Below, one piece after another: positions 800-24,172 of a stretch of DNA of 32,000 nt. Each line of letters begins with the position of its first letter. The stretch's first letter is position 1. A program made the position numbers and the translations under genes. Origin of the DNA: an uncultured Opitutales bacterium (lineage in GTDB: Bacteria > Verrucomicrobiota > Verrucomicrobiia > Opitutales > Intestinicryptomonadaceae); NCBI GenBank assembly GCA_934613415.1, contig CAKTSY010000004.1:252681-284680 (forward strand). Reading direction: 5' to 3'. The notes under the pieces were generated by a model. That model was not told the origin of the DNA. It saw nothing but the letters and a program-made list of their open reading frames with translations, and ran no database searches.

Positions 800-846
800 C
801 TTTGTATTTTTTGATGTAAATTATAACAAAAACAAAAAATACAAAG
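800..846. terminator. Hairpin between convergent blc and activase genes (possible bidirectional terminator)
   Basis: Perfect 13-bp inverted repeat: ctttgtatttttt (800-812) and aaaaaatacaaag (834-846), with a 21-nt loop. T/A runs are built into the arms. It sits between two stop codons (798 and 855). Confidence 0.45.
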
Positions 847-854
847 CGGCAAAC

Positions 855-1637
855 TCACGGCAAACTTACGGTTTTTTTTGTCAATCCAGAGAGTTTTTCT
901 GCAATTATTTTTCCGTAATCTAAATCGGGCATATCCGCCTTAAAGTACGGCTTTTTCAAAGCGATAGCCTTTTCTATACCGAAGGGAACATATGGTTCTA
1001 TATGAATCTCCGACACCGACGAAAGCGAATTTGCCAAGTCTGCAATTTTTTGCAAACAAAACCCGCTGTCGTTTAAAGAAGGAATCATAGGGCACCGCAA
1101 GAAAATGCGAGTACCTGCATATTCGGCATTTTCCGCAATAGCCTTGTCTATAAAATTAAGATTATCAACAACTACATTTAACGGCTTGCCCGTATATTCA
1201 AAATGCTTTTTTTCGTCTAAAATTTTTATGTCAAAAAGCCATAAATCTACCAACGGCAAAAAGCGCGCAAGCACCGACTTTGCAGCATAACCGCTAGTTT
1301 CCACCGCCGTATGCACCCCGTGCGATTTTGCGCCTTCCAACAACTCAACAGCAAAATCGGGTGCAGCCAAAACCTCTCCACCCGAAAGCGTAAGCCCGCC
1401 AGCCGACTCATCGTAAAAATCTTTGTCTTTTAAGACTTCGTTTAAAACCGCCTTAGTAGACATTACTTTGCCTATAGGCGTTCCGTCGGGATACTGCCCT
1501 ATTCCGAAATCCTGACTTTCTGGAGAATGGCACCAAATGCAGCGCAATGGGCACCCCCTAAGGAACACAACAGTGCGTATTCCGGGGCCGTCGTGGGTTG
1601 AAAATTTGTCTATTTTTAAGACAACCGCTTTTTGCAT
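855..1637 (-). CDS. Glycyl-radical enzyme activating protein (radical SAM, PflA-like short form)
   Basis: ORF 855-1817, trimmed to the ATG at 1637 (MQKAVVLKIDKFSTHDGPGIRTVVFLRGCPLRCIWCHSPES). It has the CX3CX2C radical-SAM cluster motif and a GGLTLSGGE SAM-binding motif. About 260 aa, with no ferredoxin-like insert and no signal peptide. It starts 5 nt after the GRE stop codon. Confidence 0.9.
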   Translation of the reverse strand: MQKAVVLKIDKFSTHDGPGIRTVVFLRGCPLRCIWCHSPESQDFGIGQYPDGTPIGKVMSTKAVLNEVLKDKDFYDESAGGLTLSGGEVLAAPDFAVELLEGAKSHGVHTAVETSGYAAKSVLARFLPLVDLWLFDIKILDEKKHFEYTGKPLNVVVDNLNFIDKAIAENAEYAGTRIFLRCPMIPSLNDSGFCLQKIADLANSLSSVSEIHIEPYVPFGIEKAIALKKPYFKADMPDLDYGKIIAEKLSGLTKKTVSLP

Positions 1638-1642
1638 GGACT

Positions 1643-4006
1643 CTACACAAGCCTGTGTCGTTCTATAACCTCGTTTTGCCAACGTTCCGACAAAGCGACA
1701 AAACGCGCAGAAAAACCGCATACTTTCACCATTAAATCCATGTGGCGTTCGGGGTGCTTTTGCGCGTCTATAAGGTCTTCTACAGAATTGCAGTTGGGCT
1801 GCAAAAGGTGCCCGCATTTCTTTGCAAAAACCCTAAATATGGCGGCAAAAGTCTCGGCACTCATAGCGTGCTTGTCGAAAGTAAGATTGGCGTTCGATGC
1901 AATCAGACATTCGTGAGGAAGCGTTGCGATAGAGTTCAAAACCGTTGTAATGCCCTCTTTGCAGCGGTATTCGCTGGGCGAAAATCCCTGCGCAAAGCGG
2001 TCGCCGTTGTACCTGCCGTCGGGAGTCGCCTTTGCACCGTTTCCCCAATACATAAACTCTCTATATATCAAAATCGCCAAGTGGTACGAATCGTTTTGGT
2101 CGGTCGTAAAACCCTCTATGTCGTCGTGAATTTTCCGCATCCACCACGCCATTTGCTCGCACGACTTTTTCGAACCGTCGCCCCAATACGGAGCCTTTAA
2201 CACCTCTGCGCGCAAACGTTGTCCGTAGTCGCCCTCCCAGTTGTTGCGAACGGCATTCAGCAGCTCTTTTATAGTGCAAATTTTTTTGTCGAAACAAACG
2301 TATTCTATTGCCAACAGCGAATCCACAACATTGCCCAAAAACGCCAAAGTGATTACGCGCGGGCGAGATGCTACACCGCCGTCGGTAGTATCGCGTCGGC
2401 TTTCTATTGCACCTTTTAGACACATAGAATATACGGGATAAGGCGAAATCTTCGCAATTTGCCTTCCGTACCTAGTATATTGCCCCATCACACTCCTGAA
2501 AAACTTTATAAAATTCCTGTATGCAATGCGCTGCGCATCGCCCGCGCTCTTTGCGTTTTGCAGGGGCTCAATTTCTATTTGCGCCTCTTTTTCTAAATTT
2601 TTATCCTGGTATATTGAAAGCTCCAAAGTTCTTACAACGGAAACATAGTTTGCGTCGTCTACGTCCATTACCGAATCTATGTAGCCATTCCAACAACCGC
2701 ACGCAACATATTCCCTCGCGTCCTCGTCAGAAAAACCGCAATTTTTGTAATATGGAATATGGCGGTCGTCGTTAAACAGAGCAAACACGCAATGCCCCTT
2801 CATAAGCATATCTCCGATTTGCAGGAAATATTCTTGCGGCGAATTAGACGATATCCTGCAATGCAATTTTGGGAATACGCAATCTGCGGCATAGTGCATT
2901 TCTATAAACATTTTTGTTAGGTCGTTATACACTACGTTCCCGTATTTGTCGCACCCGCCCAATGTTATGGGAATTTCCATTTCGTGGTCGTCGTATCCGT
3001 CTACCTTGCGCATACCGTCGTGATGGCAATCGGCGGTAATCATAAATTTTGCAATCAATTCCTTTGCCTGGGCTGCAGTTAAACGCCCTTCGGCTATGTC
3101 GGCCTTGTACAGGCCATACAGCCAAGCATCGCAACGCCCCATTGCATACACAGAAACCCCGTCTATATAGCCGAGTATTTCGCGCATAAACCAAAGAGTG
3201 TTTAGCCCTTCGTAAAATGTTTTCGGCGGTTCCCACGGGCAACGCTTTGCGGATTGCGCAATCATCTTAAAGTTATTGCGCTGCCTTTCGGTTAAAGACA
3301 GGTCTTTTAAACGCCTTTCTGCTTCGTCTGCAAACGAAAGCTGTATCTTATGCAGAGTTTTCAATCCTTCAAGAGCCGTCTGCAACTCCTTTTTGCCCAA
3401 TATATCGTCGCTTGGGCAGCTCTTTAACGCTGCTTGAACATCGGCATAAACACCGCCAAAACCCTTGCTTAAAATTGTTCTCGCAGGTGGAATGTGGTGA
3501 ATTGAATCGACAAAAGGCCCGCAACAAAGCGTGAGGCGTTCTTTATTGCGCCTATTGAACACCTTAAAGGCCTCGTCGGGAATCAAGTTTTTTTCGCGGT
3601 AAAAACGCGAACAAAGATGCCAAGCCATTCTGGCTGGGCGCGCTCCCGCCCAGCCACCGTTTACGCCGGCTTCAAAATAAAACGGCGATTCGGTAAAAAT
3701 AAACGGGACAAAGTGCGTACGCATAGACTCGTACAATTTTTTGCGTATATCCAATGCATCATAATTGGGGTTGAGTTTTGTATACGCGATTATTTCGCTC
3801 TGAATTTTCTTTACGCTGTCTATTTGCCTAATGTCTTTTGCTTTACCGTGGCATTCGTCAGGATAAAAAGCGCGAAGCTGCTTGCGTAAAGCCGCATAGT
3901 CTTCGGAGCAATTTAAAGTTGAAGCCCCAAGCACGCCATTGCCGGCAAAAACCGTTGCAGTTGCTGCCATAGCCGTATTTTTTATAAAATTTCTCCTCGA
4001 TATCAT
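1643..4006 (-). CDS. Glycyl radical enzyme (PFL2-like family, unknown substrate) with N-terminal twin-arginine signal
   Basis: 787 aa. C-terminal glycyl radical loop DLMVKVCGFSARFVALSERWQNEVIERH (Gly764). ATPDGR block at residues 660-665. Cys loop EYVACGCWNG (Cys438), 326 residues before the Gly, a spacing typical of GREs. N-terminus MISRRNFIKNTAMAATATVFAGNGVLGAS fits the S-R-R-x-F-[LI]-K Tat consensus. ATG start confirmed at 4004-4006. Confidence 0.9.
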   Translation of the reverse strand: MISRRNFIKNTAMAATATVFAGNGVLGASTLNCSEDYAALRKQLRAFYPDECHGKAKDIRQIDSVKKIQSEIIAYTKLNPNYDALDIRKKLYESMRTHFVPFIFTESPFYFEAGVNGGWAGARPARMAWHLCSRFYREKNLIPDEAFKVFNRRNKERLTLCCGPFVDSIHHIPPARTILSKGFGGVYADVQAALKSCPSDDILGKKELQTALEGLKTLHKIQLSFADEAERRLKDLSLTERQRNNFKMIAQSAKRCPWEPPKTFYEGLNTLWFMREILGYIDGVSVYAMGRCDAWLYGLYKADIAEGRLTAAQAKELIAKFMITADCHHDGMRKVDGYDDHEMEIPITLGGCDKYGNVVYNDLTKMFIEMHYAADCVFPKLHCRISSNSPQEYFLQIGDMLMKGHCVFALFNDDRHIPYYKNCGFSDEDAREYVACGCWNGYIDSVMDVDDANYVSVVRTLELSIYQDKNLEKEAQIEIEPLQNAKSAGDAQRIAYRNFIKFFRSVMGQYTRYGRQIAKISPYPVYSMCLKGAIESRRDTTDGGVASRPRVITLAFLGNVVDSLLAIEYVCFDKKICTIKELLNAVRNNWEGDYGQRLRAEVLKAPYWGDGSKKSCEQMAWWMRKIHDDIEGFTTDQNDSYHLAILIYREFMYWGNGAKATPDGRYNGDRFAQGFSPSEYRCKEGITTVLNSIATLPHECLIASNANLTFDKHAMSAETFAAIFRVFAKKCGHLLQPNCNSVEDLIDAQKHPERHMDLMVKVCGFSARFVALSERWQNEVIERHRLV

Positions 4007-4070: not shown

Positions 4071-4103
4071 AAAAAAAGGGCTCGTTTACACGAGTCCTTT
4101 TTT
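4071..4103 (-). terminator. Rho-independent terminator downstream of tRNA-Thr
   Basis: Stem gggctcg (4078-4084) and cgagtcc (4091-4097), 6-nt loop. An A-run precedes it and a T-run follows on the plus strand, so a U-tract follows the hairpin on either strand. Confidence 0.6.
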
Positions 4104-4108
4104 GACCG

Positions 4109-4181
<73 letters not shown>

Positions 4182-4208: not shown

Positions 4209-7200
4209 TTACTGATTTTGTTTTGCAAGCTTTTTTTGACTTAAAATTACATCTTTGCCGAAAATTCTGCGAATTATGTAATAAAACACGGGAGTCATTA
4301 GGCAGCCGCATATTGTTACACCCAACATGCCGAACAAAACCGATGTTCCCAACGCCTGTCTTAGCTCAAAACCCGAGCCCGTGCCGTATGCCAAGGGAAC
4401 AACGCCCAAGATAAAGGCGAAAGATGTCATCAAAATGGGGCGCAAACGGTTTTTGGAAGCATTGCTTACGGCGCTTACAATCTCCTCGCCCCTTGCCTCT
4501 CTTTGCTTTGCAAATTCGACAATCAAAATCGCGTTTTTGCAGGCAAGGCCTATAAGCACAACAAAGCCTATTTGCGACATTATATTGTTGTCCATCTTGC
4601 GATAGTCTATACCGAGCACCGCAAACAACAGCACCAGCGGCACAATAAGTATAACCGAAAGCGGAATTGTCCAGCTCTCGTACAGTGCCGAAAGCAAAAG
4701 GAAAATAAACACAACGCACACGCCGAAAATATACAGCGCGGTATTGCCCGCCTTGCGTTCCTGATAAACAAGGTCTGTCCATTCTATGCCCATGCCCACG
4801 GGTAAAATTTGGCGGGCAAGCTCCTCTATTTGGTTGGCAACATAACCCGTGCTATAACCCTTTTTAAGGTTGCCCTGAATGGGCGCGCTTGAATACAAGT
4901 TAAACCTTTCCACACGATCGGGCCCAATGCCGCGCCTTATTTTTACAAGCGAGCCAAACGGAACGCTTTTGCCGTTTTTGCTGGGCACTTTCAAGTTGTA
5001 TATGTCGTTTATACTGCCCCTGTTTTCGGGCTGGCCTTGGGCTACAACCCTGTAAACGCGCCCTAAAATATTAAAGTCGTTAACGTATGCCGAGCCAAAA
5101 TTATACTGCATTGCGGCGAAAATTTCTGATATGGGAACGTTTAGCTTTTGCGCCCTTTCGCGGTCTACCTCCATAAACAGCTGCGGATCGCTTACCCTAT
5201 ACGAAGTAAACACGCTGTCTACGGAATCGAGCTTTTCTATTTCCCCTACCAAAAGGGTTGCGTAGTGGTTTAGCTGCATAACGCCAAGGCCTGCCCTGTC
5301 TTGCAACATAAATTTAAAGTCGCTGCCCGACCCTATGCCGGGAACGGGCGAAGGCGTTAAAATATTGCTCTTTGCCTCCGAAATATTTTCGTCGAGAACC
5401 TTTCTTGCCTCCTGCATAATGTGCGCCATTGTGTAGCCGTGGGCGTCTCTATACGAGCGTTCCCTGAAATTTACAACCAATCTGCCGCACGAAGACGAAA
5501 CCATACCCGTTGCCGCATTTTGCCCGGCGTTAGACTGTGCATACCTTATGCCCGCAATACGCATAACAAGGTCTCCCGCGCGTTTGGTAACCTCTTCGGT
5601 TGTGCTAAACGCCGTTCCGTTGGGCATATCAAGTCCTATGTTTATAAAGCCTCTGTCCTGCTTGGGTATAAAGCCCTTGGGTGTTGTTTCGAAAACGTGA
5701 ACTGTTAGATACAACAAACCTATGTACAAAAGGAAAATTATAATCGAAATTCTTATTAAACCTGCAACCAAGCGGCCGTAGAACTTTGCGCAAAGTTCGA
5801 ATACCTTGTTGAAAAGCCAGAATATTTTGCCGAATGTATTGTTGTATAACTTAAACAAAAATCCCTTTTTTGCATTGGGCTTTTCTTTAAGGAAAAGCGC
5901 GCAAAGCGCGGGAGTAAGCGTAAGCGAAACTATGCCCGAAAATATTGTAGAAGCTGCAATTGTTATTGCAAACTGCCTGTAAAACTGCCCGGAAATGCCG
6001 CCCAAAAACGCGGTGGGTAAAAACACGCAGCTTAGCACCAAAACAATTGCTATAAGCGCGCCCTGCACTTGCGTCATTGCCTTTTCGGTTGCGGCTTTTG
6101 CGTCCAGGCCGTCGGCCATATTGCGCTCTACGTTTTCTACAACAACAATCGCGTCGTCTACAACAATGCCTATGGCAAGCACCAAACCGAATAGCGTAAG
6201 GTTGTTTATTGAATAGCCCAAAGCATACATAACCGCAAATGTGCCAACCAGCGAAACGGGAATTGCAAAAAGCGGAATAACGGCCGCCCTGAATTTTTGC
6301 AGGAACAACAGCACCACAAAAACAACCAAAATTACGGCGTCGAAAATTGTGCTGTAAACGGCGTTGATTGATTCTGAAATATATTCGGTTGTATCGAAGC
6401 CTATTATATAGTCGACATCGTTTGGGAAATCTTTTTTAAGCTCTTCCAGCTCTTTGCGAATGTTTTTAACGGTTTGCACCGCGTTAGACCCTGGCAACTG
6501 GTACGCCCCCATACCCACCGTACTTTTGTTGTTGATATACGAGTCGGTATTGTAGTTGTAGGAAGCCAGCTCTATTTTAGCTACGTCTTTTAGGCGAATA
6601 ACCCTGCCGTCGGGCAGGTCTTTTACTATAATCGAGCCAAATTCCGATTCGGTAGAAAGCCTGCCCTTCATATTTATCAGCAGCTCAAGCGTTGCGTCCT
6701 CCTTGTGGGGCGACTGGTTTATTTTGCCCGCGGCAACCTGTTTGTTTTGCTCTTCTATTGCCGAAATAATTTCCTTTGCGCCCATATTCAGGCTGGCAAG
6801 CCTGTCGGGGTCTATCCAAATACGCATACAATATTCCTTTGCGCCCCAAACGTCGAACTCGCTAACGCCGTATACGCGCGAAAGCCTGTCTTGCATATTT
6901 GTAATTGCATAGTTTGTTAAATACAGTTTGTCGCGCGTGCCCTTAGGCGAAATAAGGTTCACAGTCATCAACATATCGGGCGAGCGCTTTGCCACGGTTA
7001 CGCCCTTGTCGCGCACCTCTTTCGGCAATCTGGAAAGCGACTGCGAAACTTTGTTTTGCACCAAAACCTGCGCCATGTCTATGTTGGTGCCCGTTTCGAA
7101 AGTAACGGTAATTCTAACCGAGCCGTTCGAAGCGCACTGGCTTTGCATGTAAATCATATTTTCTACGCCGTTTATTTCCTGCTCGAGAGGGGCGGCAACG

Positions 7201-7385
7201 GTGTTCATCAAAACTTCGGGCGACGCCCCAGCATAGTTTGCCGAAACCGAAATTGTGGGCGGCACAATGTTCGGATACTGCGTAATTGGCAAGTTTTGGA
7301 ACGCAACGGCACCTACAAGCATTATGAAGATTGAAATAACGCTTGCAAAAATTGGCCTGTTTATAAAGAAGTGCGAAAAATTCAT
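4209..7385 (-). CDS. RND efflux transporter permease (HAE1 / AcrB-like)
   Basis: 1058 aa. N-terminus MNFSHFFINRPIFASVISIFIMLVG and the TM4 block AIGIVVDDAIVVVENVERNM are typical of AcrB-family pumps. Two large periplasmic loops and 12 hydrophobic segments are apparent. The start overlaps the adaptor stop by 1 nt (TAATG). Confidence 0.95.
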   Translation of the reverse strand: MNFSHFFINRPIFASVISIFIMLVGAVAFQNLPITQYPNIVPPTISVSANYAGASPEVLMNTVAAPLEQEINGVENMIYMQSQCASNGSVRITVTFETGTNIDMAQVLVQNKVSQSLSRLPKEVRDKGVTVAKRSPDMLMTVNLISPKGTRDKLYLTNYAITNMQDRLSRVYGVSEFDVWGAKEYCMRIWIDPDRLASLNMGAKEIISAIEEQNKQVAAGKINQSPHKEDATLELLINMKGRLSTESEFGSIIVKDLPDGRVIRLKDVAKIELASYNYNTDSYINNKSTVGMGAYQLPGSNAVQTVKNIRKELEELKKDFPNDVDYIIGFDTTEYISESINAVYSTIFDAVILVVFVVLLFLQKFRAAVIPLFAIPVSLVGTFAVMYALGYSINNLTLFGLVLAIGIVVDDAIVVVENVERNMADGLDAKAATEKAMTQVQGALIAIVLVLSCVFLPTAFLGGISGQFYRQFAITIAASTIFSGIVSLTLTPALCALFLKEKPNAKKGFLFKLYNNTFGKIFWLFNKVFELCAKFYGRLVAGLIRISIIIFLLYIGLLYLTVHVFETTPKGFIPKQDRGFINIGLDMPNGTAFSTTEEVTKRAGDLVMRIAGIRYAQSNAGQNAATGMVSSSCGRLVVNFRERSYRDAHGYTMAHIMQEARKVLDENISEAKSNILTPSPVPGIGSGSDFKFMLQDRAGLGVMQLNHYATLLVGEIEKLDSVDSVFTSYRVSDPQLFMEVDRERAQKLNVPISEIFAAMQYNFGSAYVNDFNILGRVYRVVAQGQPENRGSINDIYNLKVPSKNGKSVPFGSLVKIRRGIGPDRVERFNLYSSAPIQGNLKKGYSTGYVANQIEELARQILPVGMGIEWTDLVYQERKAGNTALYIFGVCVVFIFLLLSALYESWTIPLSVILIVPLVLLFAVLGIDYRKMDNNIMSQIGFVVLIGLACKNAILIVEFAKQREARGEEIVSAVSNASKNRLRPILMTSFAFILGVVPLAYGTGSGFELRQALGTSVLFGMLGVTICGCLMTPVFYYIIRRIFGKDVILSQKKLAKQNQ

Positions 7386-8515
7386 TATTTAAGCTCCACC
7401 TTTACGGGTTTTACAACCGAATTTAACTTTGCGCGGTGAAGTGCTTTTACAACAACCCAATCGCTGTCTTTTAAGCCGTCTAAAATTATTATGTTTTTGC
7501 CTATGTTTTCGCCAACAGTTACCGCTCGGTATTCAACAACGTTCTTGTCGTTCACAACCAAAACATAGCGACCAACTAAGTCGGTGCCTACAATTTGTTC
7601 GGGTAGCATAAGGCGGTCTACACCCTCGCTGCGGCGCAAACTTGCCTTTGCATACATACCGGGGAAAAGCTTGCCCTTAGAATTGTCCACATCGGCCCTA
7701 AGCTCCATACTTGCCGAATTTAGCTTGTTGTCGATATACGTTAACACACCGGTGTGCGACGCGGTTTTTTCGTCCATAAGCTTTATCTTTACGGGCGGGC
7801 CGCTGCGGGTGTCGCCGTTGATTTTATCTATAAGGTTTTCGTTTGAATAGTTTATTATATCGCGTTCGCTAACTTCGAAATACGCATATATTGTAGCTCT
7901 CGAAACCACGTTTGCCATAAGGGTACTCGAAGCTTCAATAAGGTTGCCTGCGTCTACCATACGGCGGCTTACATAGCCCGAAATTGGAGAGGTGATTTTA
8001 GTAAATTCAAGATTAAGGTTTGCCTCTTTTAACTGGGCTTTTGCGCTCATTAACAATGCGTTTGTAGTAAGGTATTCGCTGCGGCGGGTTTCCAAAGTTT
8101 CTTTCGAAATTGCCTTGGCGGCAAACAGTTCTTCGGCGCGGCTTAGGTTGCTTTTTGCCAAGCTTACCTTCGATTCTGCCTCTATAACCGATGCCTTGCA
8201 GTTTTCTACTACAACCTCGAAAGGCCTTGGATCTATAAGGAAAAGCGGCTGGCCCTCCTTTACATATTGGCCGTCGAAAAACAAAATCTTTTCGAGATAG
8301 CCGCTAACGCGCGAGCGTATTTCAACCGACTTTTCGCCCTCTAGTCTTGCAACGTAGTCGTCCCAAATTTCTACCTTGCGCTTTATGGGGTTTGCAACCT
8401 CTACCGAATTGTTCTGTGCAGTCGTTTTGGCTGCGGGTTGTTCGTCTTTGCAGGATACCGCAAAAAATGCGCACAATGCAAATAATGCAAATGTATATAA
8501 ATTTGTTTTAGCCAT
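7385..8515 (-). CDS. RND efflux periplasmic adaptor (membrane fusion protein, AcrA/HlyD_D23 family) lipoprotein
   Basis: ORF 7385-8575, trimmed to the ATG at 8515 (MAKTNLYTFALFALCAFFAVSC, lipobox AVSC). It shows the coiled-coil and beta-barrel pattern of adaptors (RVSGYLEKILFFDGQYVKEGQPLFLIDPRPF). Translationally coupled to the permease. Confidence 0.9.
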   Translation of the reverse strand: MAKTNLYTFALFALCAFFAVSCKDEQPAAKTTAQNNSVEVANPIKRKVEIWDDYVARLEGEKSVEIRSRVSGYLEKILFFDGQYVKEGQPLFLIDPRPFEVVVENCKASVIEAESKVSLAKSNLSRAEELFAAKAISKETLETRRSEYLTTNALLMSAKAQLKEANLNLEFTKITSPISGYVSRRMVDAGNLIEASSTLMANVVSRATIYAYFEVSERDIINYSNENLIDKINGDTRSGPPVKIKLMDEKTASHTGVLTYIDNKLNSASMELRADVDNSKGKLFPGMYAKASLRRSEGVDRLMLPEQIVGTDLVGRYVLVVNDKNVVEYRAVTVGENIGKNIIILDGLKDSDWVVVKALHRAKLNSVVKPVKVELK

Positions 8516-8700
8516 ATATAGAAGATAAAGTTTTTTAAGGCTTAAAAAAGAGAACTGCACCGCAATTTGCCGCAAAACCCGACAACACAGCGTTTAACAA
8601 AGCCCTCCCCCGCAAGCCGTTAAAGTTTTAAAGATTTACAATTATATAAAAGGGGCTGCTTTTCAAGAATTTTTACATAAAAATTTGCATATTTTTGGGC

Positions 8701-11459: not shown

Positions 11460-13592
11460 TTAGTAGACAAAAAGCATTTCGCAATACTTGGGCAAGGGCC
11501 ACAATTCGTTGTCGACTTCGCCTTCAAGCGTATCGGCAATTTTGCGGACTTCGGCCATTGCATCGAGCAGCTTTACGGGAGCTTCGCCCTTCTTTATAAG
11601 GGCTTCAAGCTTGTCGGCAGCCAAAACCAAAGCGTTAAGCCTTGTATCGATTTTTGCAGCCAGTGCCTTTACAGCCGAATTCTTTGTGCCCAAAATCTTT
11701 TCGGCTTCAAGCGACTTGCCAAGCTTTTCTATGTAGGCAACCACTGCGGGGATTATGTGCGTGCGCGAAATCTTCAAGGTCAACCCGGCTTCTATTCCTA
11801 CTTTGCGGGTATATTCTTCCAAGAATACTTCGTAGCGCGACTTTAATTCTACCGCATTGAAAACTCCGTACTTTTCGAAAAGCGCAACGTTCTTGGGGTC
11901 TACCAAGGGCTTGATTGCCTCGGGGGTTGTGCGCAAATTTGGCAACTTGCGCTTTGCGGCCTCCTTCTTCCAAGCGTCGCCGTAACCGTCGCCGTTGAAG
12001 ATAATCTTCTTGTGCTTTTTGATTATGGCCGAAAGAATCTTTTGCAATTCATCGTGGAAGTTTGCGCTTTTTGGCAGATTCTCGAGCATTGTTGCAATTT
12101 CGTCGAAAGCTTCGGCAACCGCGGTATTCAAAACAATGTTCGGGCTTGCGCAGCTTTGCGAAGAGCCAGCGGCTCTAAACTCGAACTTGTTGCCCGTAAA
12201 TGCAAATGGGCTTGTTCTGTTTCTGTCGGTTGCATCGCATGGCAATACGGGCAAAATGTCGGCACCGATTTTCAAAATCTTACCGTGCTTGCTCGACTTT
12301 GCGCCGCCATTTTCTATCTGCTCTACAATGTCGGCGAGCTGTTCGCCCAAGTACATCGAAATGATTGCCGGCGGAGCTTCGTTTGCGCCCAAACGGTGGT
12401 CGTTGCCCGCCCCCGCAATTGCCGAGCGCAACAAGTCGGCGTGTCTGTCTACAGCTTCTATTACCGCGCAAAGGCTTGTAAGGAATATTGCGTTTTGGTG
12501 GGGGTCGTCGCCGGGGTTAAGCAAATTGATGTCGCCAACCGAAATAGACCAGTTGTTGTGCTTGCCCGAACCGTTTACGCCATCGAAGGGCTTTTCGTGA
12601 AGCAGGCATGCAAAACCGTGTTTGTCGCCTATTCTCTTTAGCGCGTCCATAATAAGCATATTGTGGTCTACCGCCAAGTTAAGCTCTTCAAACATCGGGG
12701 CAATTTCGAACTGCGCGGGGGCAACTTCGTTGTGCCTTGTTTTTGCGGGTATGCCAAGCCTCCACAATTCGTGGTCAAGCTCGCTCATAAACGACAAAAT
12801 TCTGGGTTTAATTGCGCCGAAGTAGTGGTCTTCCAATTGTTGGTGCCTTTGCGGAGGCGCGCCAAACAATGTTCTGCCGGTTTGCATTAGGTCGGGGCGT
12901 TGAACATAAAAACGCTTGTCGATTAAAAAGTATTCTTGCTCCGCACCCAAGGTTACCTTTGCGTTGGCTTCAAAATTCTTGCCAAAGCACTTTAGCAGGC
13001 GCTTTGCCTGTGCGCCCAAAACCTGCATAGAGCGCAACAAAGGAGTTTTCTTGTCGAGAACTTCGCCCGTGTACGAGCAGAAAGCCGTGGGAATGTACAA
13101 GGTTGCAACACCGTATTCGCGCTTAATAAAGGCGGGGCTTGTCGGGTCCCAAGCGGTGTAGCCGCGGGCTTCCGCCGTAGAGCGCAAACCGCCCGAGGGG
13201 AAACTGGAAGCGTCGGGTTCGCCCATTATAAGGTTTTTGCCCGAAAATCTTGCAATGACTTCGCCGCCGCCGACAGGTTCAAGGAAAGAGTCGTGCTTTT
13301 CGGCACTGGAGCCAGTAAGGGGCATAAACCAGTGAGTGTAATGGGTAGCCCCCCTCTTAATCGCCCAGCTTTTCATTGCGTGGGCAACATCGTCGGCAAT
13401 CGAAGAATCTATTGCCTTGCCAGTGTTCATAGTTTCCAACAGCTTCTTGAAAACGGGCTTGGGGAGATATTCCGACATTGCCTTAATGTTGAATACGTCG
13501 CAGCCGTAGTCTTCTATGAAGTTGTCTGCCGCCGCCGTTTCGGGAACGGCGGTGTCGGCAATATTTGCCAGTGCTATTTTTCTGCTATTCAT
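11460..13592 (-). CDS. glnN: Glutamine synthetase type III
   Basis: 710 aa, the size class of GSIII. Contains the NGSGKHNNWS block and an N-terminal region (THYTHWFMPLTGSSAEKHDSF) characteristic of type III enzymes. ATG confirmed at 13590-13592, preceded by a GAAAGGA Shine-Dalgarno-like element. Confidence 0.95.
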   Translation of the reverse strand: MNSRKIALANIADTAVPETAAADNFIEDYGCDVFNIKAMSEYLPKPVFKKLLETMNTGKAIDSSIADDVAHAMKSWAIKRGATHYTHWFMPLTGSSAEKHDSFLEPVGGGEVIARFSGKNLIMGEPDASSFPSGGLRSTAEARGYTAWDPTSPAFIKREYGVATLYIPTAFCSYTGEVLDKKTPLLRSMQVLGAQAKRLLKCFGKNFEANAKVTLGAEQEYFLIDKRFYVQRPDLMQTGRTLFGAPPQRHQQLEDHYFGAIKPRILSFMSELDHELWRLGIPAKTRHNEVAPAQFEIAPMFEELNLAVDHNMLIMDALKRIGDKHGFACLLHEKPFDGVNGSGKHNNWSISVGDINLLNPGDDPHQNAIFLTSLCAVIEAVDRHADLLRSAIAGAGNDHRLGANEAPPAIISMYLGEQLADIVEQIENGGAKSSKHGKILKIGADILPVLPCDATDRNRTSPFAFTGNKFEFRAAGSSQSCASPNIVLNTAVAEAFDEIATMLENLPKSANFHDELQKILSAIIKKHKKIIFNGDGYGDAWKKEAAKRKLPNLRTTPEAIKPLVDPKNVALFEKYGVFNAVELKSRYEVFLEEYTRKVGIEAGLTLKISRTHIIPAVVAYIEKLGKSLEAEKILGTKNSAVKALAAKIDTRLNALVLAADKLEALIKKGEAPVKLLDAMAEVRKIADTLEGEVDNELWPLPKYCEMLFVY

Positions 13593-13625
13593 ATTTTTGT
13601 CCTTTCAAAATTCGTCTTTTAAAAA

Positions 13626-14957
13626 CTATTCGTTAGAGAAGATTTGGAATCCGTTATAGGCCTCCATCGCGTGTTCCGAAATATCCAAGCCCTTCAATTC
13701 GTCGCTCCTGCTTACCCTTATGCCCATTGTCTTCTTTATTGTGTAGAAGATTGCAAAGCTTATCGAAATGCTTGCCGCAGCCACTGCAACTATGCCTATT
13801 ATTTGCGGGAGAAGTTCGTGGTCGGGCGAGAATAGTCCAACCGCCAAGGTTCCCCAGATGCCGCATACCAAGTGTACCGAAAGCGCGCCAACAGGGTCGT
13901 CGATTTGCAGCTTGTCGAAGGCGTATACCGCAATTACAACTATCACACCCGAGATTGCACCTATTAGGCACGAAGCTTGAATCGATACGCAGTCTGCAGC
14001 AGCCGTTATACCCACCAAGCCTGCCAAGCAACCGTTAAGAACCATAGACAAGTCGGGCTTGCCTTGCGCTACCCACGAAGTGAACATTGCAGCCATTAAA
14101 CCAGCCGCGGCCGATAAAGCCGTTGTTGTGAATACGTAAGCTACCATTACGGGGTCGGCACTGAATACCGAAGCACCATTAAAGCCGAACCAACCGAACC
14201 ACAGTAGGAATACACCCAATGTTGCAAAGCCCAAGTTGCTGCCGGGAATTGCGTGGGCAGTCTTGCCAACGTACTTGCCGATTCTTGGCCCTACCAATAT
14301 TGCGCCTACTAAGGCTGCCCAACCGCCAACGCTGTGTACGAATGTAGAACCCGCCAAGTCGTAGAAGCCGAGCTTTGCCAACCAGCCGCCGCCCCAGCCC
14401 CACGAGCCGATAAGCGTGTAACCGAACGCCGCATAGAGTATTGCAAATATTATATATGCGCTAAACTTTATTCTTTCGGCAACCGCACCCGAAACAATAG
14501 TTACGGAAGTCGCCGCAAACATACCTTGGAATATAAAGTCCGTCCAGTAGCCATAGTTGCCGCCATTATAGGCAATCCCGCCCAGCGCGCCTTCGGGCGA
14601 AGAAACGCCAAAGCCCATAAAGCCCAACACACCGTTTATAAGCCAAGAATCTTTCGGATACATAATGCTAAAACCGATTACCACATAGGTAAGCAAACCG
14701 ATTGCCACCGTGATAACGTTTTTAGAAAGAATGTTCACGCTGTTCTTTGCGCGGCACAAACCAGTTTCTACCAGTGCAAACCCGGGGTGCATTGCAAAAA
14801 CCAAAATTGCACCCAAAAGTATCCACAAGTTGTTAATTGTAAACATTTCGTTCGAAACTGCGGGCGTTGCAGCCTCGGCGTTTGCCGCCACCTCTTGCCC
14901 AAATGCCGAACACGCGCCCATCAGCGCGCCTATATATAACAATGTCTTTAGTCTCAT
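13626..14957 (-). CDS. amtB: Ammonium transporter (Amt family)
   Basis: 443 aa with a signal peptide and about 11 TM segments. Conserved DLAGSTFVHSVGGWAALVGAILVGPRIGKY block. Lies 22 nt downstream of glnK, the classic glnK-amtB pairing. Confidence 0.95.
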   Translation of the reverse strand: MRLKTLLYIGALMGACSAFGQEVAANAEAATPAVSNEMFTINNLWILLGAILVFAMHPGFALVETGLCRAKNSVNILSKNVITVAIGLLTYVVIGFSIMYPKDSWLINGVLGFMGFGVSSPEGALGGIAYNGGNYGYWTDFIFQGMFAATSVTIVSGAVAERIKFSAYIIFAILYAAFGYTLIGSWGWGGGWLAKLGFYDLAGSTFVHSVGGWAALVGAILVGPRIGKYVGKTAHAIPGSNLGFATLGVFLLWFGWFGFNGASVFSADPVMVAYVFTTTALSAAAGLMAAMFTSWVAQGKPDLSMVLNGCLAGLVGITAAADCVSIQASCLIGAISGVIVVIAVYAFDKLQIDDPVGALSVHLVCGIWGTLAVGLFSPDHELLPQIIGIVAVAAASISISFAIFYTIKKTMGIRVSRSDELKGLDISEHAMEAYNGFQIFSNE

Positions 14958-14979
14958 AACTGTAAATGCGTTAAAGTTT

Positions 14980-15321
14980 TTAGCCTATTGCCTCGCGACC
15001 TGTTTCGCGCGTTCTCACGCGAATACATTCCTCGACGTTCAATACAAAAATTTTGCCGTCGCCGATGTGGTCGGTTTGGGCACCTTTTATAATAGACTCT
15101 ATTGTCTGGTCGAGATACTCGTCGTTAACAGCGATTTCCAAGCGTACTTTTTTAAGGAGGTTTACCTCTCTAACATTTCCGCGATAGTTTTCGCTATAAC
15201 CCTTCTGCCTTCCGCAGCCGAGTGCGTTAGTAACCGATAGCCTGTATATTTCGTTCTTGAAGAGTTCCTTTTTTACCTCTCCAAGTTGTTCGGGCTTAAT
15301 GTATGCTATTATTAGTTTCAT
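14980..15321 (-). CDS. glnK: P-II nitrogen regulatory protein
   Basis: ORF 14980-15414, trimmed to the ATG at 15321 (MKLIIAYIKPEQLGEVKKEL...). 113 aa. T-loop GRQKGYSENYRGN retains the Tyr. The untrimmed extension would run through the sigma-54 promoter. Confidence 0.9.
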   Translation of the reverse strand: MKLIIAYIKPEQLGEVKKELFKNEIYRLSVTNALGCGRQKGYSENYRGNVREVNLLKKVRLEIAVNDEYLDQTIESIIKGAQTDHIGDGKIFVLNVEECIRVRTRETGREAIG

Positions 15322-15352
15322 TTTTTTGGAATGATGAGATACTTTTTTGACA

Positions 15353-15369
15353 AGCATAAAGCGTGCCAG
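15353..15369 (-). promoter_or_regulatory. Sigma-54 (-24/-12) promoter of glnK-amtB-glnN
   Basis: Minus strand reads CTGGCACGCTTTATGCTT. GG and GC have the canonical TGGCAC-N5-TTGC spacing (ATGC in place of TTGC). About 33 nt upstream of the glnK ATG. Confidence 0.75.
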
Positions 15370-15431
15370 TTTTTTTACACATTTTTGCAAAAATGCGGCA
15401 AAAACCACAAACACCGCATAAACACTAAGTT

Positions 15432-15557
15432 CTACAAGAATGTAGGCACCTGCAAAATTGGCGCATACAAAAAAGTAGCCCTTTATACCCCATTTTTTAG
15501 CCCTTCTGCGCTACAAATTTGTTGCAACTACATTTTTGTGCTACTACAAATTTGTAG
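15432..15557. promoter_or_regulatory. Array of CTACA-N4-TGTAG palindromic sites (candidate enhancer/UAS for the sigma-54 activator)
   Basis: Five sites. 15432-15445 CTACA-AGAA-TGTAG. 15465-15478 ATACA-AAAA-AGTAG. 15511-15524 CTACA-AATT-TGTTG. 15528-15541 CTACA-TTTT-TGTGC. 15544-15557 CTACA-AATT-TGTAG, which is the core of the perfect 16-bp palindrome ACTACAAATTTGTAGT at 15543-15558. The array lies 70-190 bp upstream of the -24 element. Confidence 0.55.
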
Positions 15558-15573
15558 TTCAGCAAAATATACA

Positions 15574-15603
15574 ACAAAAAAGGCGGTGCATTTAAGCACC
15601 GCC
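15574..15603 (-). terminator. Rho-independent terminator after dapF-like gene
   Basis: Stem ggcggtgc (15582-15589) and gcaccgcc (15596-15603), 6-nt loop. On the minus strand it is followed by TTTTTTGTTG. Confidence 0.7.
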
Positions 15604-15627
15604 CGACAACAATCCAATTTACACAAA

Positions 15628-16488
15628 TTACATATTAGGAATGTCTTGCGTTAAAACGCTATCGAACATTTCGTATACTCCCACTTTTGTAGCGGGCCCG
15701 CTCATAGTTATAGAATAGTCGGGTTTTATTGAAATTTTCAAAATTCCGCCGGGCATATGAACAGTTATGTCGCCTTCGCATAAGCCAAGTTTGTAGGCAA
15801 CGCTTGCCGCCGCGCTAGAACTTGAGCCCGAAGCCAACGTATAGCCTGCGCCCCTCTCCCAAATTTGGATGTTAATGTTGTTTTTGTCTACAACCTCTAA
15901 AAACTGCACATTTGTTCTATTGGGAAATTTCTCCGTCATATTCTCCAAAACGGGGCCAATTTTGTGCGCAATTTCCGACGAAACCTTTTTCATAGGCACA
16001 ACGCAGTGGGGGTTGCCAACGGTTGCGCAGCAATATTTATAGGCTACGCCGTCTATTACAACCTCTTGGTTTATAACTTCGTCCTTTACGCCGTTTACGG
16101 GAATTTTGTCGGCGTCGAAGCTTACGCGCCCCATTTCAACAGTAATATAATTTCCGTTTTGTGAAACCGTGCACGAAACTACGCCACCTAAAGTATCTAC
16201 CGTAAAGGGCTTGTTTTCTTCAACGCGCCCAGTGTCGAACAAATAGCGCGAAAATATCCTAAGGCCGTTGCCGCTTTTTTCGGCTTCGCTGGCATCGGGG
16301 TTTAATATGCGCAGTTTAAAGTCGGCTTTGTCGCTCTTTTCGGGGCCGAACAAAATTCCGTCGCTTCCCAAGCCGAAATTTCTGTGGCAAATTTTAACAA
16401 CGTCCAAGCCCTGCGGGCAAACGGGGCAATCTTTGGGGTCTAAAACCAGATAGTCGTTGCCCAATGCGTGGTATTTATAAAACTTCAT
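15628..16488 (-). CDS. Diaminopimelate epimerase homolog (DapF fold) lacking both catalytic cysteines
   Basis: ORF 15628-16566, trimmed to the ATG at 16488 (MKFYKYHALGNDYLVLD). It aligns by eye along the whole length with E. coli DapF (GNDF, NADGSE, GNPHCV, ERGAGET). The C73 position reads KSGNG and the C217 position reads LASGSS. Confidence 0.75.
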   Translation of the reverse strand: MKFYKYHALGNDYLVLDPKDCPVCPQGLDVVKICHRNFGLGSDGILFGPEKSDKADFKLRILNPDASEAEKSGNGLRIFSRYLFDTGRVEENKPFTVDTLGGVVSCTVSQNGNYITVEMGRVSFDADKIPVNGVKDEVINQEVVIDGVAYKYCCATVGNPHCVVPMKKVSSEIAHKIGPVLENMTEKFPNRTNVQFLEVVDKNNINIQIWERGAGYTLASGSSSSAAASVAYKLGLCEGDITVHMPGGILKISIKPDYSITMSGPATKVGVYEMFDSVLTQDIPNM

Positions 16489-16501
16489 TTTTGTATCCTT
16501 A

Positions 16502-17740
16502 TTAAAATTCGAATTTCGACTGCGACATTCTCTTTTTGATTTCGGCAACAACCGCCTTTTCGGCATCTATGCCGTGCGCTTCAAAAGTTACCGAAAACCT
16601 TACATACGGGCCTTCGTCGTCCCACGGAACCGTGCTTATTAGATGTTGCGAAATCATCCACTGCGAAAAATCTTCGCCCGACTTAAACTCGGTTTTGCTT
16701 CCGTCTTCGTTCAAAGCGGCTTTTGGAGCTTTCATATAAAGGAAGAACCCTGCTTTCGGCTTTTTGGGGCTAAAGCCCAAGTCTTTTAACACGCCCACAA
16801 GCAAATCCATACGTCTGGAATATTTTGCGGCAATTTGCCTTGTAATAAGCGGGTTTTCTAGCCCCTTTGCCCCAGCAAGCTGTATGCCCAAAAATTGTCC
16901 GGAATCGCAGTTGTCTTTAACGTCGCCGTAGGCTTTTACAAGCAGGGGATTTCCGCAAACCCAGCCAATTCGCCAGCCGGTCATATTGTGGCTTTTCGAC
17001 ATCGAGTGCAGTTCAAGAGCCACGTCTTTGGCACCTTGAACCTGAAATATAGAAAGCGAAGGTCCTTCAAATGTCAAAGACGCGTACGCTGCATCGGAGA
17101 TTATTATTATGGAGTTTTCCTTTGCAAACTTTACAAGCTTTTCGAAAAACTCAAGCGTTGCACTTGCACCCGTTGGGTTGTTAGGATAGTTTACAACCAT
17201 AACTTTTGCCCTTTTCCTTATGTCTTGGGGAATGGAATCTAAATCGGGCAAAAAGTTGTTTTCTTCGGAAAGCTTTACGTTGTATACTTCGCCGCCCAAA
17301 TATTTTGCGTGCGTACCAAAAACGGGGTAGCCTGGTATTGTCATTATAACAACGTCTTTGGGGTTTATAAAGCAATAGGGCAAAATGCTCAGGGCCGCTT
17401 TAGAGCCTATAGAGTGTATAATTTCGGTGTCGGGATCTAGCTGTACGCCGAAAACCGCCTTCATATATGAAGCGGCCGCCACTTTAAAATCTCTGCCGCC
17501 GTTGTCGGCATAGCCGCGGTTTGCGGGGTTTTTTGCCGCAGCATACAAAGCCTCTACAACTTCGGGGAAAGCCATTTCGTCGGGCTCGCCAACGCCCATA
17601 TCTATAAGCTCAACATCGGGCTTGGCGGCTTTTGCCGCGCGCTTTGCCCTCTTGATTTTTTCGAACTTGTAAATTTCGTTCGTTTTGCCGTAGTTTACTC
17701 CGCCAATTCTTTCGGCGAACATATTCTGAAGGAATGTCAT
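16502..17740 (-). CDS. Class I/II PLP-dependent aminotransferase (candidate LL-diaminopimelate aminotransferase by context)
   Basis: 412 aa. PLP-lysine block HSMSKSHNMTGWRIGW. VVNYPNNPTG block typical of fold-type I aminotransferases. Ends 13 nt upstream of the DapF homolog start. Substrate assignment rests on context only. Confidence 0.6.
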   Translation of the reverse strand: MTFLQNMFAERIGGVNYGKTNEIYKFEKIKRAKRAAKAAKPDVELIDMGVGEPDEMAFPEVVEALYAAAKNPANRGYADNGGRDFKVAAASYMKAVFGVQLDPDTEIIHSIGSKAALSILPYCFINPKDVVIMTIPGYPVFGTHAKYLGGEVYNVKLSEENNFLPDLDSIPQDIRKRAKVMVVNYPNNPTGASATLEFFEKLVKFAKENSIIIISDAAYASLTFEGPSLSIFQVQGAKDVALELHSMSKSHNMTGWRIGWVCGNPLLVKAYGDVKDNCDSGQFLGIQLAGAKGLENPLITRQIAAKYSRRMDLLVGVLKDLGFSPKKPKAGFFLYMKAPKAALNEDGSKTEFKSGEDFSQWMISQHLISTVPWDDEGPYVRFSVTFEAHGIDAEKAVVAEIKKRMSQSKFEF

Positions 17741-17762
17741 TTTTGTACGAGTGTTAGGTTGT

Positions 17763-19310: not shown

Positions 19311-19409
19311 AAGCTTATGTTTGTTTTGCGGCACAATGCAGGCCGAACCCGAAAACTTTATTATGTGTTTTTTAGCTCTTTTTACATTGTGCCCGTTTGA
19401 TTTTTCGCT

Positions 19410-23876: not shown

Positions 23877-23904
23877 AATTGTAATTGTTGTTTGCTTTTT
23901 ATGT

Positions 23905-23921: not shown

Positions 23922-23993
23922 TTTCAAAAAACATTTCTGCAATTTCACATAACTAGCTAATTATCATACTAATATCTTAGAACATATATGGAA

Positions 23994-24170: not shown

Positions 24171-24172
24171 TT

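Follow-up and report, generated by a model that had tools for sequence, protein, structure and literature searches.

A candidate Tat-exported glycyl radical enzyme encoded beside its activase in an uncultured Opitutales bacterium

An uncultured Opitutales bacterium encodes a glycyl radical enzyme (GRE) that, on balance, is probably made as a precursor with a working Tat signal peptide, activated in the cytoplasm and then exported. The usual view confines GREs and their radical SAM activases strictly to the cytoplasm; they depend on SAM and a low-potential reductant, and oxygen destroys them. The first-pass annotation of this DNA had called export an undescribed localisation for such an enzyme, and full-text literature searches indeed returned no exported GRE. 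The evidence base for our reading is computational throughout: it was drawn from a stretch of 32,000 nucleotides (hereafter the window), from a predicted structure and from a wider GRE family; that all family sequences come from metagenome-assembled genomes (MAGs) or metagenomes of uncultured organisms was counted against it.

The window protein is a genuine GRE with its own activase. Pfam models cover most of the chain, PFL-like (PF02901) at residues 169-648 (2.4e-75) and Gly_radical (PF01228) at residues 671-770 (3.3e-18), and the AlphaFold2 model (pLDDT 89.3 overall) superimposes on glycerol and propanediol dehydratases, CutC and PflD with TM scores of 0.78-0.84 (about 0.82) in Foldseek. 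Pfam, NCBIfam, a PDB sequence search and Foldseek alike place it in the PFL2/dehydratase-like group. The glycyl loop, the ATPDGR block and a cysteine loop 326 residues ahead of the radical glycine, on which the first-pass annotation had based its identification, were all recovered (Table 1). In a 35-sequence family alignment (A1), C763-F769 are invariant, as are G437, C438 and W439; C438 aligns with the catalytic cysteine of CutC and PFL2. The glycyl loop matches the fingerprint RVxG[FYW] as KVCGF, the first position being R or K across the family and the glycine invariant. The cysteine loop reads GCWNG here and GCW[N/D]G family-wide, with Asn or Asp where the GCVE of CutC and PFL2 has Glu, so that the general-base glutamate is absent from this family. 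A radical SAM activase gene adjoins the GRE gene, as expected of a member of the superfamily. Two assignments were rejected: pyruvate formate-lyase proper, because the loop is C-G-C-W and not CC (TIGR01255, 48.2 bits against a cut-off of 994.2), and the known eliminase/dehydratase families, because the GCxE loop is missing (TIGR01774, 231.7 bits against 678.2). Scores against the HypD, CutC, HpsG and HpfG models fall far under their cut-offs, and the curated cut-off was reached in none of the NCBIfam GRE models.

Table 1. Features of the GRE-activase region, in window coordinates
Feature	Position	Strand	Basis
GRE precursor, 787 aa	1643..4006	-	ORF, Pfam PFL-like and Gly_radical, AlphaFold2 model
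Predicted Tat-type signal peptide, residues 1 to about 31	3914..4006	-	Sequence, pLDDT, conservation
Twin-arginine motif S3-R4-R5-N6-F7-I8-K9	3980..4000	-	Matches S/T-R-R-x-F-L-K consensus
Catalytic Cys loop G437-C438-W439-N440	2687..2698	-	Alignment
A-T-P-D-G-R block, residues 660-665	2012..2029	-	Invariant columns, alignment A1
Glycyl radical loop MVKVCGFSARFV, residues 758-769	1700..1735	-	Pfam Gly_radical and alignment
Radical glycine G764	1715-1717	-	
Radical SAM GRE activase, 260 aa, leaderless, 'type A'	855..1637	-	Pfam Radical_SAM and Fer4_12
CX3CX2C radical SAM motif CPLRCIWC, C29/C33/C36	1530..1553	-	Sequence; invariant in alignment A2
tRNA-Thr (TGT), upstream of GRE, bounding the transcription unit	4108..4181	-	ARAGORN
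Terminator-like hairpin and T-run between tRNA-Thr and GRE	4081..4094	-	Terminator scan, sequence
Inverted repeat ctttgtatttttt ... aaaaaatacaaag where the activase and lipocalin genes converge	803..848	.	Read from sequence

The precursor begins MISRRNFIKNTAMAATATVFAGNGVLGASTLNCS, which divides into an n-region, MISRR, and an h-region, NTAMAATATVFAGNGVLGA; the motif SRRNFIK is followed by one further lysine and then by 26 uncharged residues. Both features by which we recognised Tat leaders, a motif inside the first 35 residues and an uncharged stretch of at least 13 residues behind it, are present, so that the Tat pattern described by the first-pass annotation (S-R-R-x-F-I-K, then a hydrophobic region) could be confirmed in the sequence. 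Candidate cleavage sites, L-G-A/S or G-A-S/T, were read by eye. The annotation had also placed the start of the enzyme body behind the leader, and this held: in the family alignment the conserved mature region, DYAALRKQLRAFYP, starts at about residue 35, and pLDDT changes at the same point, from values below 50 (residues 1-34) to about 90 (residue 35 onward), which puts residues 1-34 outside the predicted fold. When all six frames of the window were scanned near start codons for RR-x-hydrophobic-hydrophobic with 13 or more uncharged residues behind it, the start of the GRE was the only site found.

The seven nearest homolog clusters (P0001-P0007, 63-99% identity) all keep [ST]RRxF[ILV][KG], so that conservation of the leader across the clade, which the first-pass annotation had proposed as a check, is borne out. 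Pairwise identity within this clade is 0.67 in the RR motif and 0.69 in the mature enzyme, but 0.26 in the h/c region; a motif as conserved as the enzyme body beside a drifting h-region is the way in which signal peptides evolve, and the leader is no chance match. A start-site artefact, with the true start downstream (for example at the GTG codon at residue 25) and the RR segment as untranslated 5' sequence, gains a little from that codon and from the weak Shine-Dalgarno signals of the lineage, but the RR motif is kept at the protein level in homologs only 63-70% identical, the ATG at 4006 has an AAGG 11 nt ahead of it, and independent gene callers arrived at about 787 aa in more than 100 clusters; we regard it as highly improbable.

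The wider family comprises more than 100 clusters at 90% identity, with several paralogs per MAG; it is abundant in gut and rumen and is found solely in Kiritimatiellae-type MAGs from these habitats. About 110 of 121 members bear a leader, of which about 55 are Tat-like and 57 Sec-like by heuristics of our own, a reliance that counts against the reading of Tat export; a stricter rule ([ST]R[RK]xF[IL][GK] and at least 12 uncharged residues) retains 39 of 118. Tat-like leaders are longer than Sec-like ones (median 40 against 32 aa) and less hydrophobic (median Kyte-Doolittle 1.9 against 2.56), which is the textbook contrast between the two pathways. Six members lack a leader, four of them because their starts were called inside one. 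In about 50 sister clusters at 50% identity the protein opens with the conserved LRxELRxFY itself, at the very point where the leader stops, which makes the leader an addition. The first-pass annotation had named homologs starting without a leader at residue 30-40 as evidence against export; such homologs do occur below about 50% identity, but not among closer relatives. The distribution shows the leader to be a clade-specific addition to an ancestrally cytoplasmic enzyme, and not an artefact of annotation. The neighbour-joining tree counts against the preferred reading of Tat export in two respects: the sister group of the window clade (L026/30/31/34/40) has no leader, and members with Tat-like leaders are scattered among those with Sec-like ones. 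Together these indicate that the localisation of these GREs is evolutionarily labile.

Genes around other family members bear on the same question. At family loci, neighbours with signal peptides include GH71/GH99+LamG, GH78, GH43, GH109, DUF4838, glucuronyl esterase and FGE-domain proteins, and 2-95 nt downstream of the GRE lie genes for secreted proteins that combine two CxxCH motifs with an HZS_alpha domain. Fusion of a Sec signal, a GH16 domain and a GRE recurs on five contigs. With the activases that carry Tat leaders of their own (described below), the fusion and the secreted glycan-degrading and di-haem neighbours point, by gene content, to a location outside the cytoplasm. The window differs in this respect, and it counts against export that its GRE-activase pair lies amid nitrogen-assimilation housekeeping genes, with no glycan locus. 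The hairpin and T-run between tRNA-Thr and the GRE suggest that the pair is a separate two-gene unit; the inverted repeat beyond the activase is probably a bidirectional terminator, missed by the terminator scan on account of its long loop.

A leader with no part in export, on an enzyme that stays in the cytoplasm or at the inner membrane face and whose RR segment is vestigial or has some other function (chaperone or activase docking, regulated degradation), seems to us distinctly unlikely. The housekeeping neighbours fit such a location, as do the cytoplasmic location of all characterised GREs, the need for cytoplasmic SAM and reductant in radical upkeep, and the close leaderless relatives, both L026/30/31/34/40 and P0362, which lies in an operon of cytoplasmic type. 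A vestigial segment, however, would not hold [ST]RRxF[IL][KG] at 0.67 while the h-region drifts (0.26) and yet stays uncharged; the positive-inside rule would put the catalytic domain outside; and classical Sec leaders have arisen repeatedly and independently in a family which also includes the GH16 fusion and whose neighbouring genes encode secreted proteins.

The first-pass annotation had proposed a search for tatA and tatC, and its outcome was divided. The translocase is present in the lineage: in a related MAG, UMGS1035, a GRE-activase pair is followed immediately by tatA and tatC, and neighbouring phosphatases carry textbook Tat leaders. A search of the 32-kb window and of about 7 kb past it turned up neither gene, which counts against Tat export. 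A leader aimed at an internal compartment, either a bacterial microcompartment (BMC) or a membrane-bound organelle of the Planctomycetes-Verrucomicrobia-Chlamydiae (PVC) group, instead of the periplasm, would accord with the encapsulation of many GREs (CutC, propanediol dehydratase) through N-terminal peptides and with the unusual cell plans of some PVC bacteria. This we consider extremely improbable, because a search of 704 kb (the window and the loci together) gave no PduA-like match, no BMC shell domain occurs among the Pfam-annotated neighbours of family GREs, the leader is of Tat/Sec type with no amphipathic encapsulation helix, and c-type haem motifs and GH16 domains, present in neighbours and fusions, belong to the periplasm or the outside of the cell.

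Whether activation precedes export turns on the activases. The window activase, whose ATG at 1637 lies 5 nt past the GRE stop codon, passes TIGR02494 (221.8 bits, cut-off 174.35), although it lacks the segment of that model holding the ferredoxin-like insert, as its alignment with relatives also shows, and CX3CX2C is its single cluster motif. The description of a leaderless minimal activase given in the first-pass annotation thus stands for the window gene, 5 nt downstream and with one cluster, but not as a picture of the whole family. Type A adjoins only Tat-type GREs: it lies beside an intact RR/RK GRE N-terminus at seven loci (L001, L002, L004, L005, L019, L020, L027), at L028 a 465-aa gene separates the two, and at L032 and L044 the contig stops short of the GRE N-terminus. 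Among the loci compared, an adjacent activase was never seen beside a Sec-like GRE. This pairing fits a folded, pre-activated protein that must leave by Tat.

A second type, B, bears its own Tat-type leader (..TR[RK]xF[IL]..AAFAVSPMLSA.GR.) ahead of a normal activase N-terminus, and forms, at 90% identity, 120 clusters whose members share 71-99% of their residues with the L011 activase. The size of this family gives some weight to another order of events, in which the GRE is exported and its radical installed outside the cytoplasm, by the window activase travelling with it as a Tat 'hitchhiker' or by a type-B activase encoded elsewhere in the genome. Type-B genes lie beside Tat-like GREs in L010, L011 and L015 and, wherever the Sec-signal GH16-GRE fusion occurs, follow it at a distance of 32 nt. 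Since Sec substrates cross the membrane unfolded, the 57 Sec-like members cannot be pre-activated, and the pairing of Sec-type and GH16-fused members with Tat-leader activases means that cytoplasmic activation is only half of the family story; the secreted proteins encoded in the same operons, each with two CxxCH haem motifs, could carry electrons. Tat hitchhiking of signal-less partners is an established mechanism, and is mentioned in 10.1101/2023.11.02.564894. For the window enzyme we nevertheless think this order unlikely. It needs an activase pre-loaded with SAM and an electron, or a putative periplasmic source of SAM and a reductant; no SAM exporter and no leader-bearing flavodoxin or ferredoxin lies near the family GRE and activase genes examined, and periplasmic SAM is not known. 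The window activase is leaderless and its type stands only beside Tat-type GREs, as cytoplasmic activation predicts; a type-B activase was not found for the window MAG. At L051 (14379-16688) a clearly leaderless GRE of a second family lies in an operon with a type-B activase, so that an activase leader alone is no proof of the site of activation. In the wider GRE family, activation may take place in the periplasm.

Taken together, these results support, at the level of sequence and predicted structure, the earlier interpretation of an exported GRE. In the mechanism we favour, GRE and activase would be transcribed as one unit downstream of tRNA-Thr and the GRE would fold in the cytoplasm, where the leaderless PFL-AE-like activase, with cytoplasmic SAM and a reduced [4Fe-4S] cluster, would abstract a hydrogen from G764. 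The folded, radical-bearing enzyme would then pass through TatABC and lose its leader near residue 29-31; in an anoxic periplasm C438 would pass the radical on to a small substrate of glycan origin, probably a sugar or a derivative of one. Export, its order relative to activation, the cleavage site and the substrate class are what we infer. Two considerations count against this scheme: we know of no demonstration that a glycyl radical survives membrane translocation, and an exported GRE could not be re-activated by a cytoplasmic activase.

Export signals conserved family-wide on enzyme and activase challenge the strictly cytoplasmic view of GREs, whose chemistry may also run outside the cytoplasm. 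A more far-reaching proposal, which we rate as rather unlikely, is that gut Kiritimatiellae conduct GRE chemistry, including radical SAM activation, outside the cytoplasm, with Tat-exported activases acting on Sec- or Tat-exported GREs, some of them fused to glycoside hydrolases; this would need periplasmic SAM and a low-potential donor (possibly the di-haem proteins), or pre-loaded 'single-shot' activases. At issue is the means by which strict anaerobes, with no recourse to oxygen-dependent enzymes, break down recalcitrant glycans from host and diet: extracytoplasmic GREs, if real, would be their radical tool for the task, corresponding to the lytic polysaccharide monooxygenases (LPMOs), which depend on oxygen. 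Current labels for the family, 'hypothetical' or 'pyruvate formate-lyase', are misleading.

Among known systems, the PFL2/dehydratase ('eliminase') GREs stand closest in fold: B12-independent glycerol dehydratase (1r8w), propanediol dehydratase (5i2g/9rco), CutC (5fau/9f3w), HypD (6vxc) and the PflD/YbiW anhydro-sugar-phosphate enzymes (8id0/8id7). They share with the window GRE the ten-stranded barrel (TM about 0.8, over essentially the whole chain), a sequence-profile match over residues about 170-787, the C-terminal Gly radical domain with the catalytic cysteine on an opposing finger loop, and a dedicated radical SAM activase encoded next door. Identity is only about 20%, and the window family alone has the GCW[N/D]G and [KR]VCGF loops, a specific N-terminal region (residues 35-170) and a predicted signal peptide. 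The leaderless sister clusters P0362-P0430 (Lentisphaeria, Verrucomicrobia and others) resemble the window GRE from residue about 35 to the C-terminus, including the LRxELRxFY start and the [RK][VI]CGF glycyl loop, and differ in having no leader. P0362, the closest of them, lies in an operon of AraC, two GREs, an SDR and an amidohydrolase or lactonase, which is a cytoplasmic catabolic pathway; its activase is classical (297 aa, with a ferredoxin insert), unlike type A.

Tat substrates with cofactors installed in the cytoplasm include TorA and the NADP-containing glucose-fructose oxidoreductase of Zymomonas, and hitchhiker pairs include HybO/HybC and DmsA/DmsB. By analogy, the window GRE has the S/T-R-R-x-F-L-K motif, the weakly hydrophobic h-region and the long leader of TorA-type substrates, and its proposed route would follow the same logic of cytoplasmic folding and maturation, export in the folded state and a signal-less partner encoded adjacently. 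The difference is that the 'cofactor' would be an oxygen-labile protein radical, whose renewal requires SAM and a low-potential electron; we know of no description of a protein-radical Tat cargo, and a radical-carrying protein would be a new kind. The anaerobic sulfatase-maturating enzyme anSME offers a second parallel, as a radical SAM enzyme that modifies an export-bound enzyme in anaerobic glycan degraders. Its product is a stable covalent formylglycine made on an unfolded substrate in the cytoplasm, whereas the window system would place a radical on a folded protein; and while anSME itself has, to our knowledge, no signal peptide, one of the two activase types in the present family carries its own Tat leader.

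The glycyl radical enzyme (GRE) and its activase form a two-gene unit, the activase ATG lying 5 nt past the GRE stop codon (see table). Pfam assigns PFL-like (residues 169–648) and Gly_radical (residues 671–770) domains to the GRE, and the motifs by which the first-pass annotation recognised it are all in place: a Gly loop at 758–769 including G764, ATPDGR at 660–665, and C438 in a Cys loop 326 residues before the Gly, each invariant in an alignment of 35 family sequences. The activase, with Radical_SAM and Fer4_12 domains, clears, at 221.8 bits, the 174.35 cut-off of the curated model for GRE activases, TIGR02494, and both this match and alignment with relatives bear out its earlier description as a minimal enzyme having one CX3CX2C motif only and no ferredoxin-like insert. 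The pair sits among nitrogen-assimilation housekeeping genes and not within a glycan-utilisation locus. An RND efflux pump (AcrB family, 1058 aa) and a membrane-fusion protein, directly upstream of tRNA-Thr, are probably unrelated to the GRE. Elsewhere in the window, a pentapeptide-repeat protein has a C-terminal PEP-CTERM-like sorting signal, VPEPATVAAIFGALALGLAVYRKRR, which fits a host from the Planctomycetes-Verrucomicrobia-Chlamydiae (PVC) group, and a phage-integrase-family tyrosine recombinase near the right end, adjoining a small P-loop-like ORF, may mark a mobile-element boundary.

Coordinates of features in the window and at related loci
Feature	Locus	Coordinates	Strand	Remarks
GRE	window	1643-4006	-	787-aa ORF, first gene of two-gene unit
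Activase	window	855-1637	-	260-aa ORF
Activase C-terminal tail	window	855-923		alignment A2 columns 301-323
Inverted repeat	window	803-848		between GRE-activase pair and convergent lipocalin gene
Terminator-like hairpin	window	4081-4094		upstream of GRE
tRNA-Thr	window	4108-4181		upstream of GRE
RND efflux pump, membrane-fusion protein	window	4209-8575	-	
Nitrogen-assimilation block	window	11460-25855	-	type III glutamine synthetase, ammonium transporter, DAP epimerase, aminotransferase, sigma-54-type regulator, glutamate synthase large subunit, NAD synthase
Pentapeptide-repeat protein	window	28325-30244	-	
P-loop-like ORF	window	30064-30522		
Tyrosine recombinase	window	30733-31878	+	
Operon of closest leaderless relative	L061	1612-10261		also L062, L063
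ompA-like, tatA, tatC after GRE-activase pair	L011; L064; L065	11369-13360; 11374-13365; 3507-5498		one human-gut species (UMGS1035)
Type-B activases	L011; L010; L038; L054	10365-11240; 10402-11238; 9586-10431; 10001-10831		P0121-P0240
GRE2	L054; L051; L066	7719-10004; 14379-16688; 5761-8004		P0241-P0360
TolB-like / HZS_alpha / two-CxxCH secreted proteins	L008; L022; L036; L050; L013	10282-13578; 3516-6809; 10328-15418; 644-4000; 3750-6728		~1100 aa or longer ORFs
Sec-GH16-GRE fusion (P0050)	L038/L058	6438-9554		also L057, L059, L060

The GRE opens with MISRRNFIK followed by 26 uncharged residues, and scanning the window in all six frames showed this to be the single site at which a twin-arginine pattern and at least 13 uncharged residues occur near a start codon. 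AlphaFold2, given the family alignment, produced a model with mean pLDDT 89.3 in which confidence falls below 50 at residues 1–34 and is about 90 or higher once the body begins at residue 35. Among 5.8 billion proteins searched, 280 matched, and the best 120 of these are 55–99% identical and approximately 765–800 aa long; [ST]RRxF[ILV][KG] opens all seven closest clusters (63–99% identity), so that the Tat-type leader claimed by the first-pass annotation is upheld on both conservation and predicted structure. Pairwise comparison within the closest clade gives the motif an identity of 0.67, on a par with the 0.69 of the mature protein, but 0.26 for the h/c region, whose sequence has drifted while retaining an uncharged hydrophobic stretch. 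A functional signal peptide leaves just such a pattern. A chance RR motif is ruled out, since the window has no other such site and orthologs have kept it, as is a mis-called start, the leader being conserved at the protein level and many independent gene calls agreeing on the length of the protein. A lipoprotein signal is likewise rejected, as the window leader lacks a lipobox (found in just 4/57 Sec-like family members), and so is microcompartment targeting, shell genes not having been found in the window or the loci.

In a GTDB scan taking one genome per species, 50 loci were found, all of them in gut or rumen metagenome-assembled genomes (MAGs) labelled Kiritimatiellae, Opitutales, Verrucomicrobia or Lentisphaerae, several MAGs holding two or three GRE paralogs; the window's own organism is a Hadza gut MAG (L001). 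By our own heuristic, which is not a trained signal-peptide predictor, 121 members were classed as Tat-RR (26), Tat-like RK/KR (29), Sec-like (57), leaderless (6) and others (3), the last being one N-terminal fusion and two in which the mature-start motif was missed (one truncated, one Sec-like). Four of the six classed leaderless have a start codon called inside the leader, but truly leaderless GREs do occur (L026, L030, L031, L034, L040, P0021 and P0044). The median length is 40 aa for Tat-like leaders and 32 aa for the Sec-like, shorter ones; the Tat-like are also the less hydrophobic (1.9, as opposed to 2.56). A stricter pattern, [ST]-R-[RK]-x-F-[IL]-[GK] with at least 12 uncharged residues, is present in 39/118. 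Leader types are intermixed in a neighbour-joining tree, in which the window clade is RR throughout and has the leaderless L026 group as its sister.

When 1.84 billion cluster representatives were searched exhaustively by HMM, one full-length leader-bearing cluster emerged at 50% identity, together with about 50 sister clusters of 745–760 aa, some from Lentisphaeria and Verrucomicrobia. Since these sister clusters align from query residue ~35 and start straight at LRxELRxFY, the leader is, by this comparison, a lineage-specific addition to an enzyme whose ancestral form was cytoplasmic. Homologs that begin without a leader, which the first-pass annotation had set against its own reading, are absent from the seven closest clusters, all RR, and present among the sister clusters. 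The closest leaderless relative belongs to a typical cytoplasmic catabolic operon: beside AraC and two GREs it holds an SDR, with its start overlapping the stop of the GRE, an amidohydrolase (amidohydrolase_2) or lactonase, and a classical activase of 297 aa; this operon provides a handle for guessing the family substrate.

The activases are of two types. Type A, the leaderless kind found in the window, adjoins Tat-type GREs only, at seven loci with an intact RR/RK GRE N-terminus; further type-A loci are L028, with one intervening gene, and L032 and L044, where the GRE N-terminus is cut off at the contig end. No activase adjoins a Sec-like GRE at the family loci. Type-A activases have in common a conserved stretch of some 23 residues at the C-terminus (..Y[GA]..I...L...T.K.V.L.), which is missing from type B. 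Type-B activases carry a Tat-like leader of their own (..TR[RK]xF[IL]..AAFAVSPMLSA.GR..) ahead of a normal activase N-terminus, and also a 21-residue Cys/His insert; they form a large family, nearly all of the best 120 clusters bearing the leader. To our knowledge, a Tat signal has not been described on any radical SAM enzyme. Type-B activases adjoin Tat-like GREs at L010, L011 and L015, and also accompany a second Kiritimatiellae GRE family (GRE2; Gly loop RV[AC]GWN[IV]RWND, mature start LSTGVEIPDEGVP), whose N-termini are short and hydrophobic, Sec-like or leaderless. At L054 and L066 the GRE2 stop codon overlaps the type-B start, and at L051 the type-B activase lies ~3.5 kb upstream of a clearly leaderless GRE2 in a shared operon.

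Across the family loci the neighbours of the GRE are overwhelmingly secreted glycan-related proteins, including DUF4838, FGE-sulfatase-domain, GH71/GH99+LamG, PATR repeat, glucuronyl esterase, BNR/sortilin, GH78, GH43 and GH109 proteins. At least eight loci have, 2–95 nt downstream of the GRE, a Sec-signal protein of ~1100 aa with a TolB-like propeller, an HZS_alpha (hydrazine-synthase-alpha) middle domain and two CxxCH haem motifs, which may be a periplasmic electron partner. One 1038-aa protein (P0050), found on 5 contigs, joins a Sec signal peptide and a GH16 domain to a full GRE, always with a type-B activase 32 nt behind it. Textbook RR leaders occur on other proteins of these loci, and in UMGS1035 the GRE, type-B activase, OmpA-like protein, TatA and TatC follow one another in the same direction with gaps of 128, 25 and -4 nt. 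In the window, L001 and all fetched loci, tat genes were found in this species only, and the linkage may be coincidence, given that ~0.5% of the genome was sampled per locus over ~50 loci. The secreted neighbours, the GH16 fusion, the leader-bearing activases and the lineage's Tat genes and leaders each point, independently, beyond the cytoplasm; Tat export of the window GRE is supported, and this interpretation extends to the whole family.

Cytoplasmic activation and then export is the most parsimonious model for the pair in the window: the GRE would fold in the cytoplasm, be activated there by the leaderless activase, pass folded through Tat, lose its leader and function in a periplasm that is anoxic. 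This order is supported by the type-A activases, which are strictly associated with Tat-type GREs and never with Sec-type ones. In the family at large, the occurrence of GREs that are Sec-type or fused to GH16, along with activases bearing a Tat leader, argues that activation can take place after export, which, if true, would need periplasmic SAM and reductant, or pre-loaded activases; beside the type-B activases, no leader-bearing redox partners or SAM transporters were recognised. The operon at L051 disfavours a simple reading of the type-B leader: a strictly periplasmic activase fits a leaderless GRE partner less well than does hitchhiking, or activation that precedes export of the activase itself.

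No report of an exported GRE, or of a GRE activase with a Tat leader, was found in the full-text literature, where coverage is incomplete (most subscription journals are missing) and absence is not proof. The genomes, all of uncultured organisms, support a known enzyme class in what would be an undescribed location and, possibly, an undescribed site of activation. Judging by the context of the leaderless relatives and by the glycan loci, the substrate may be a small compound derived from a sugar; candidates to which the loci point are rhamnose, fucose, uronic acids, methylated sugars, anhydro-sugars and lactones. Compared by sequence profile with solved structures, the GRE comes closest to CutC, Archaeoglobus PFL2, glycerol dehydratase, HypD and propanediol dehydratase (E ~1e-70 to 1e-78, residues ~170–787), and fold matches reach a TM of ~0.8 at ~20% identity. 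Against each of the curated NCBIfam models for GREs, the window GRE falls short of the cut-off; its family is uncharacterised, and has GCW[N/D]G in the Cys loop where GREs of the CutC/PFL2 type have GCxE.
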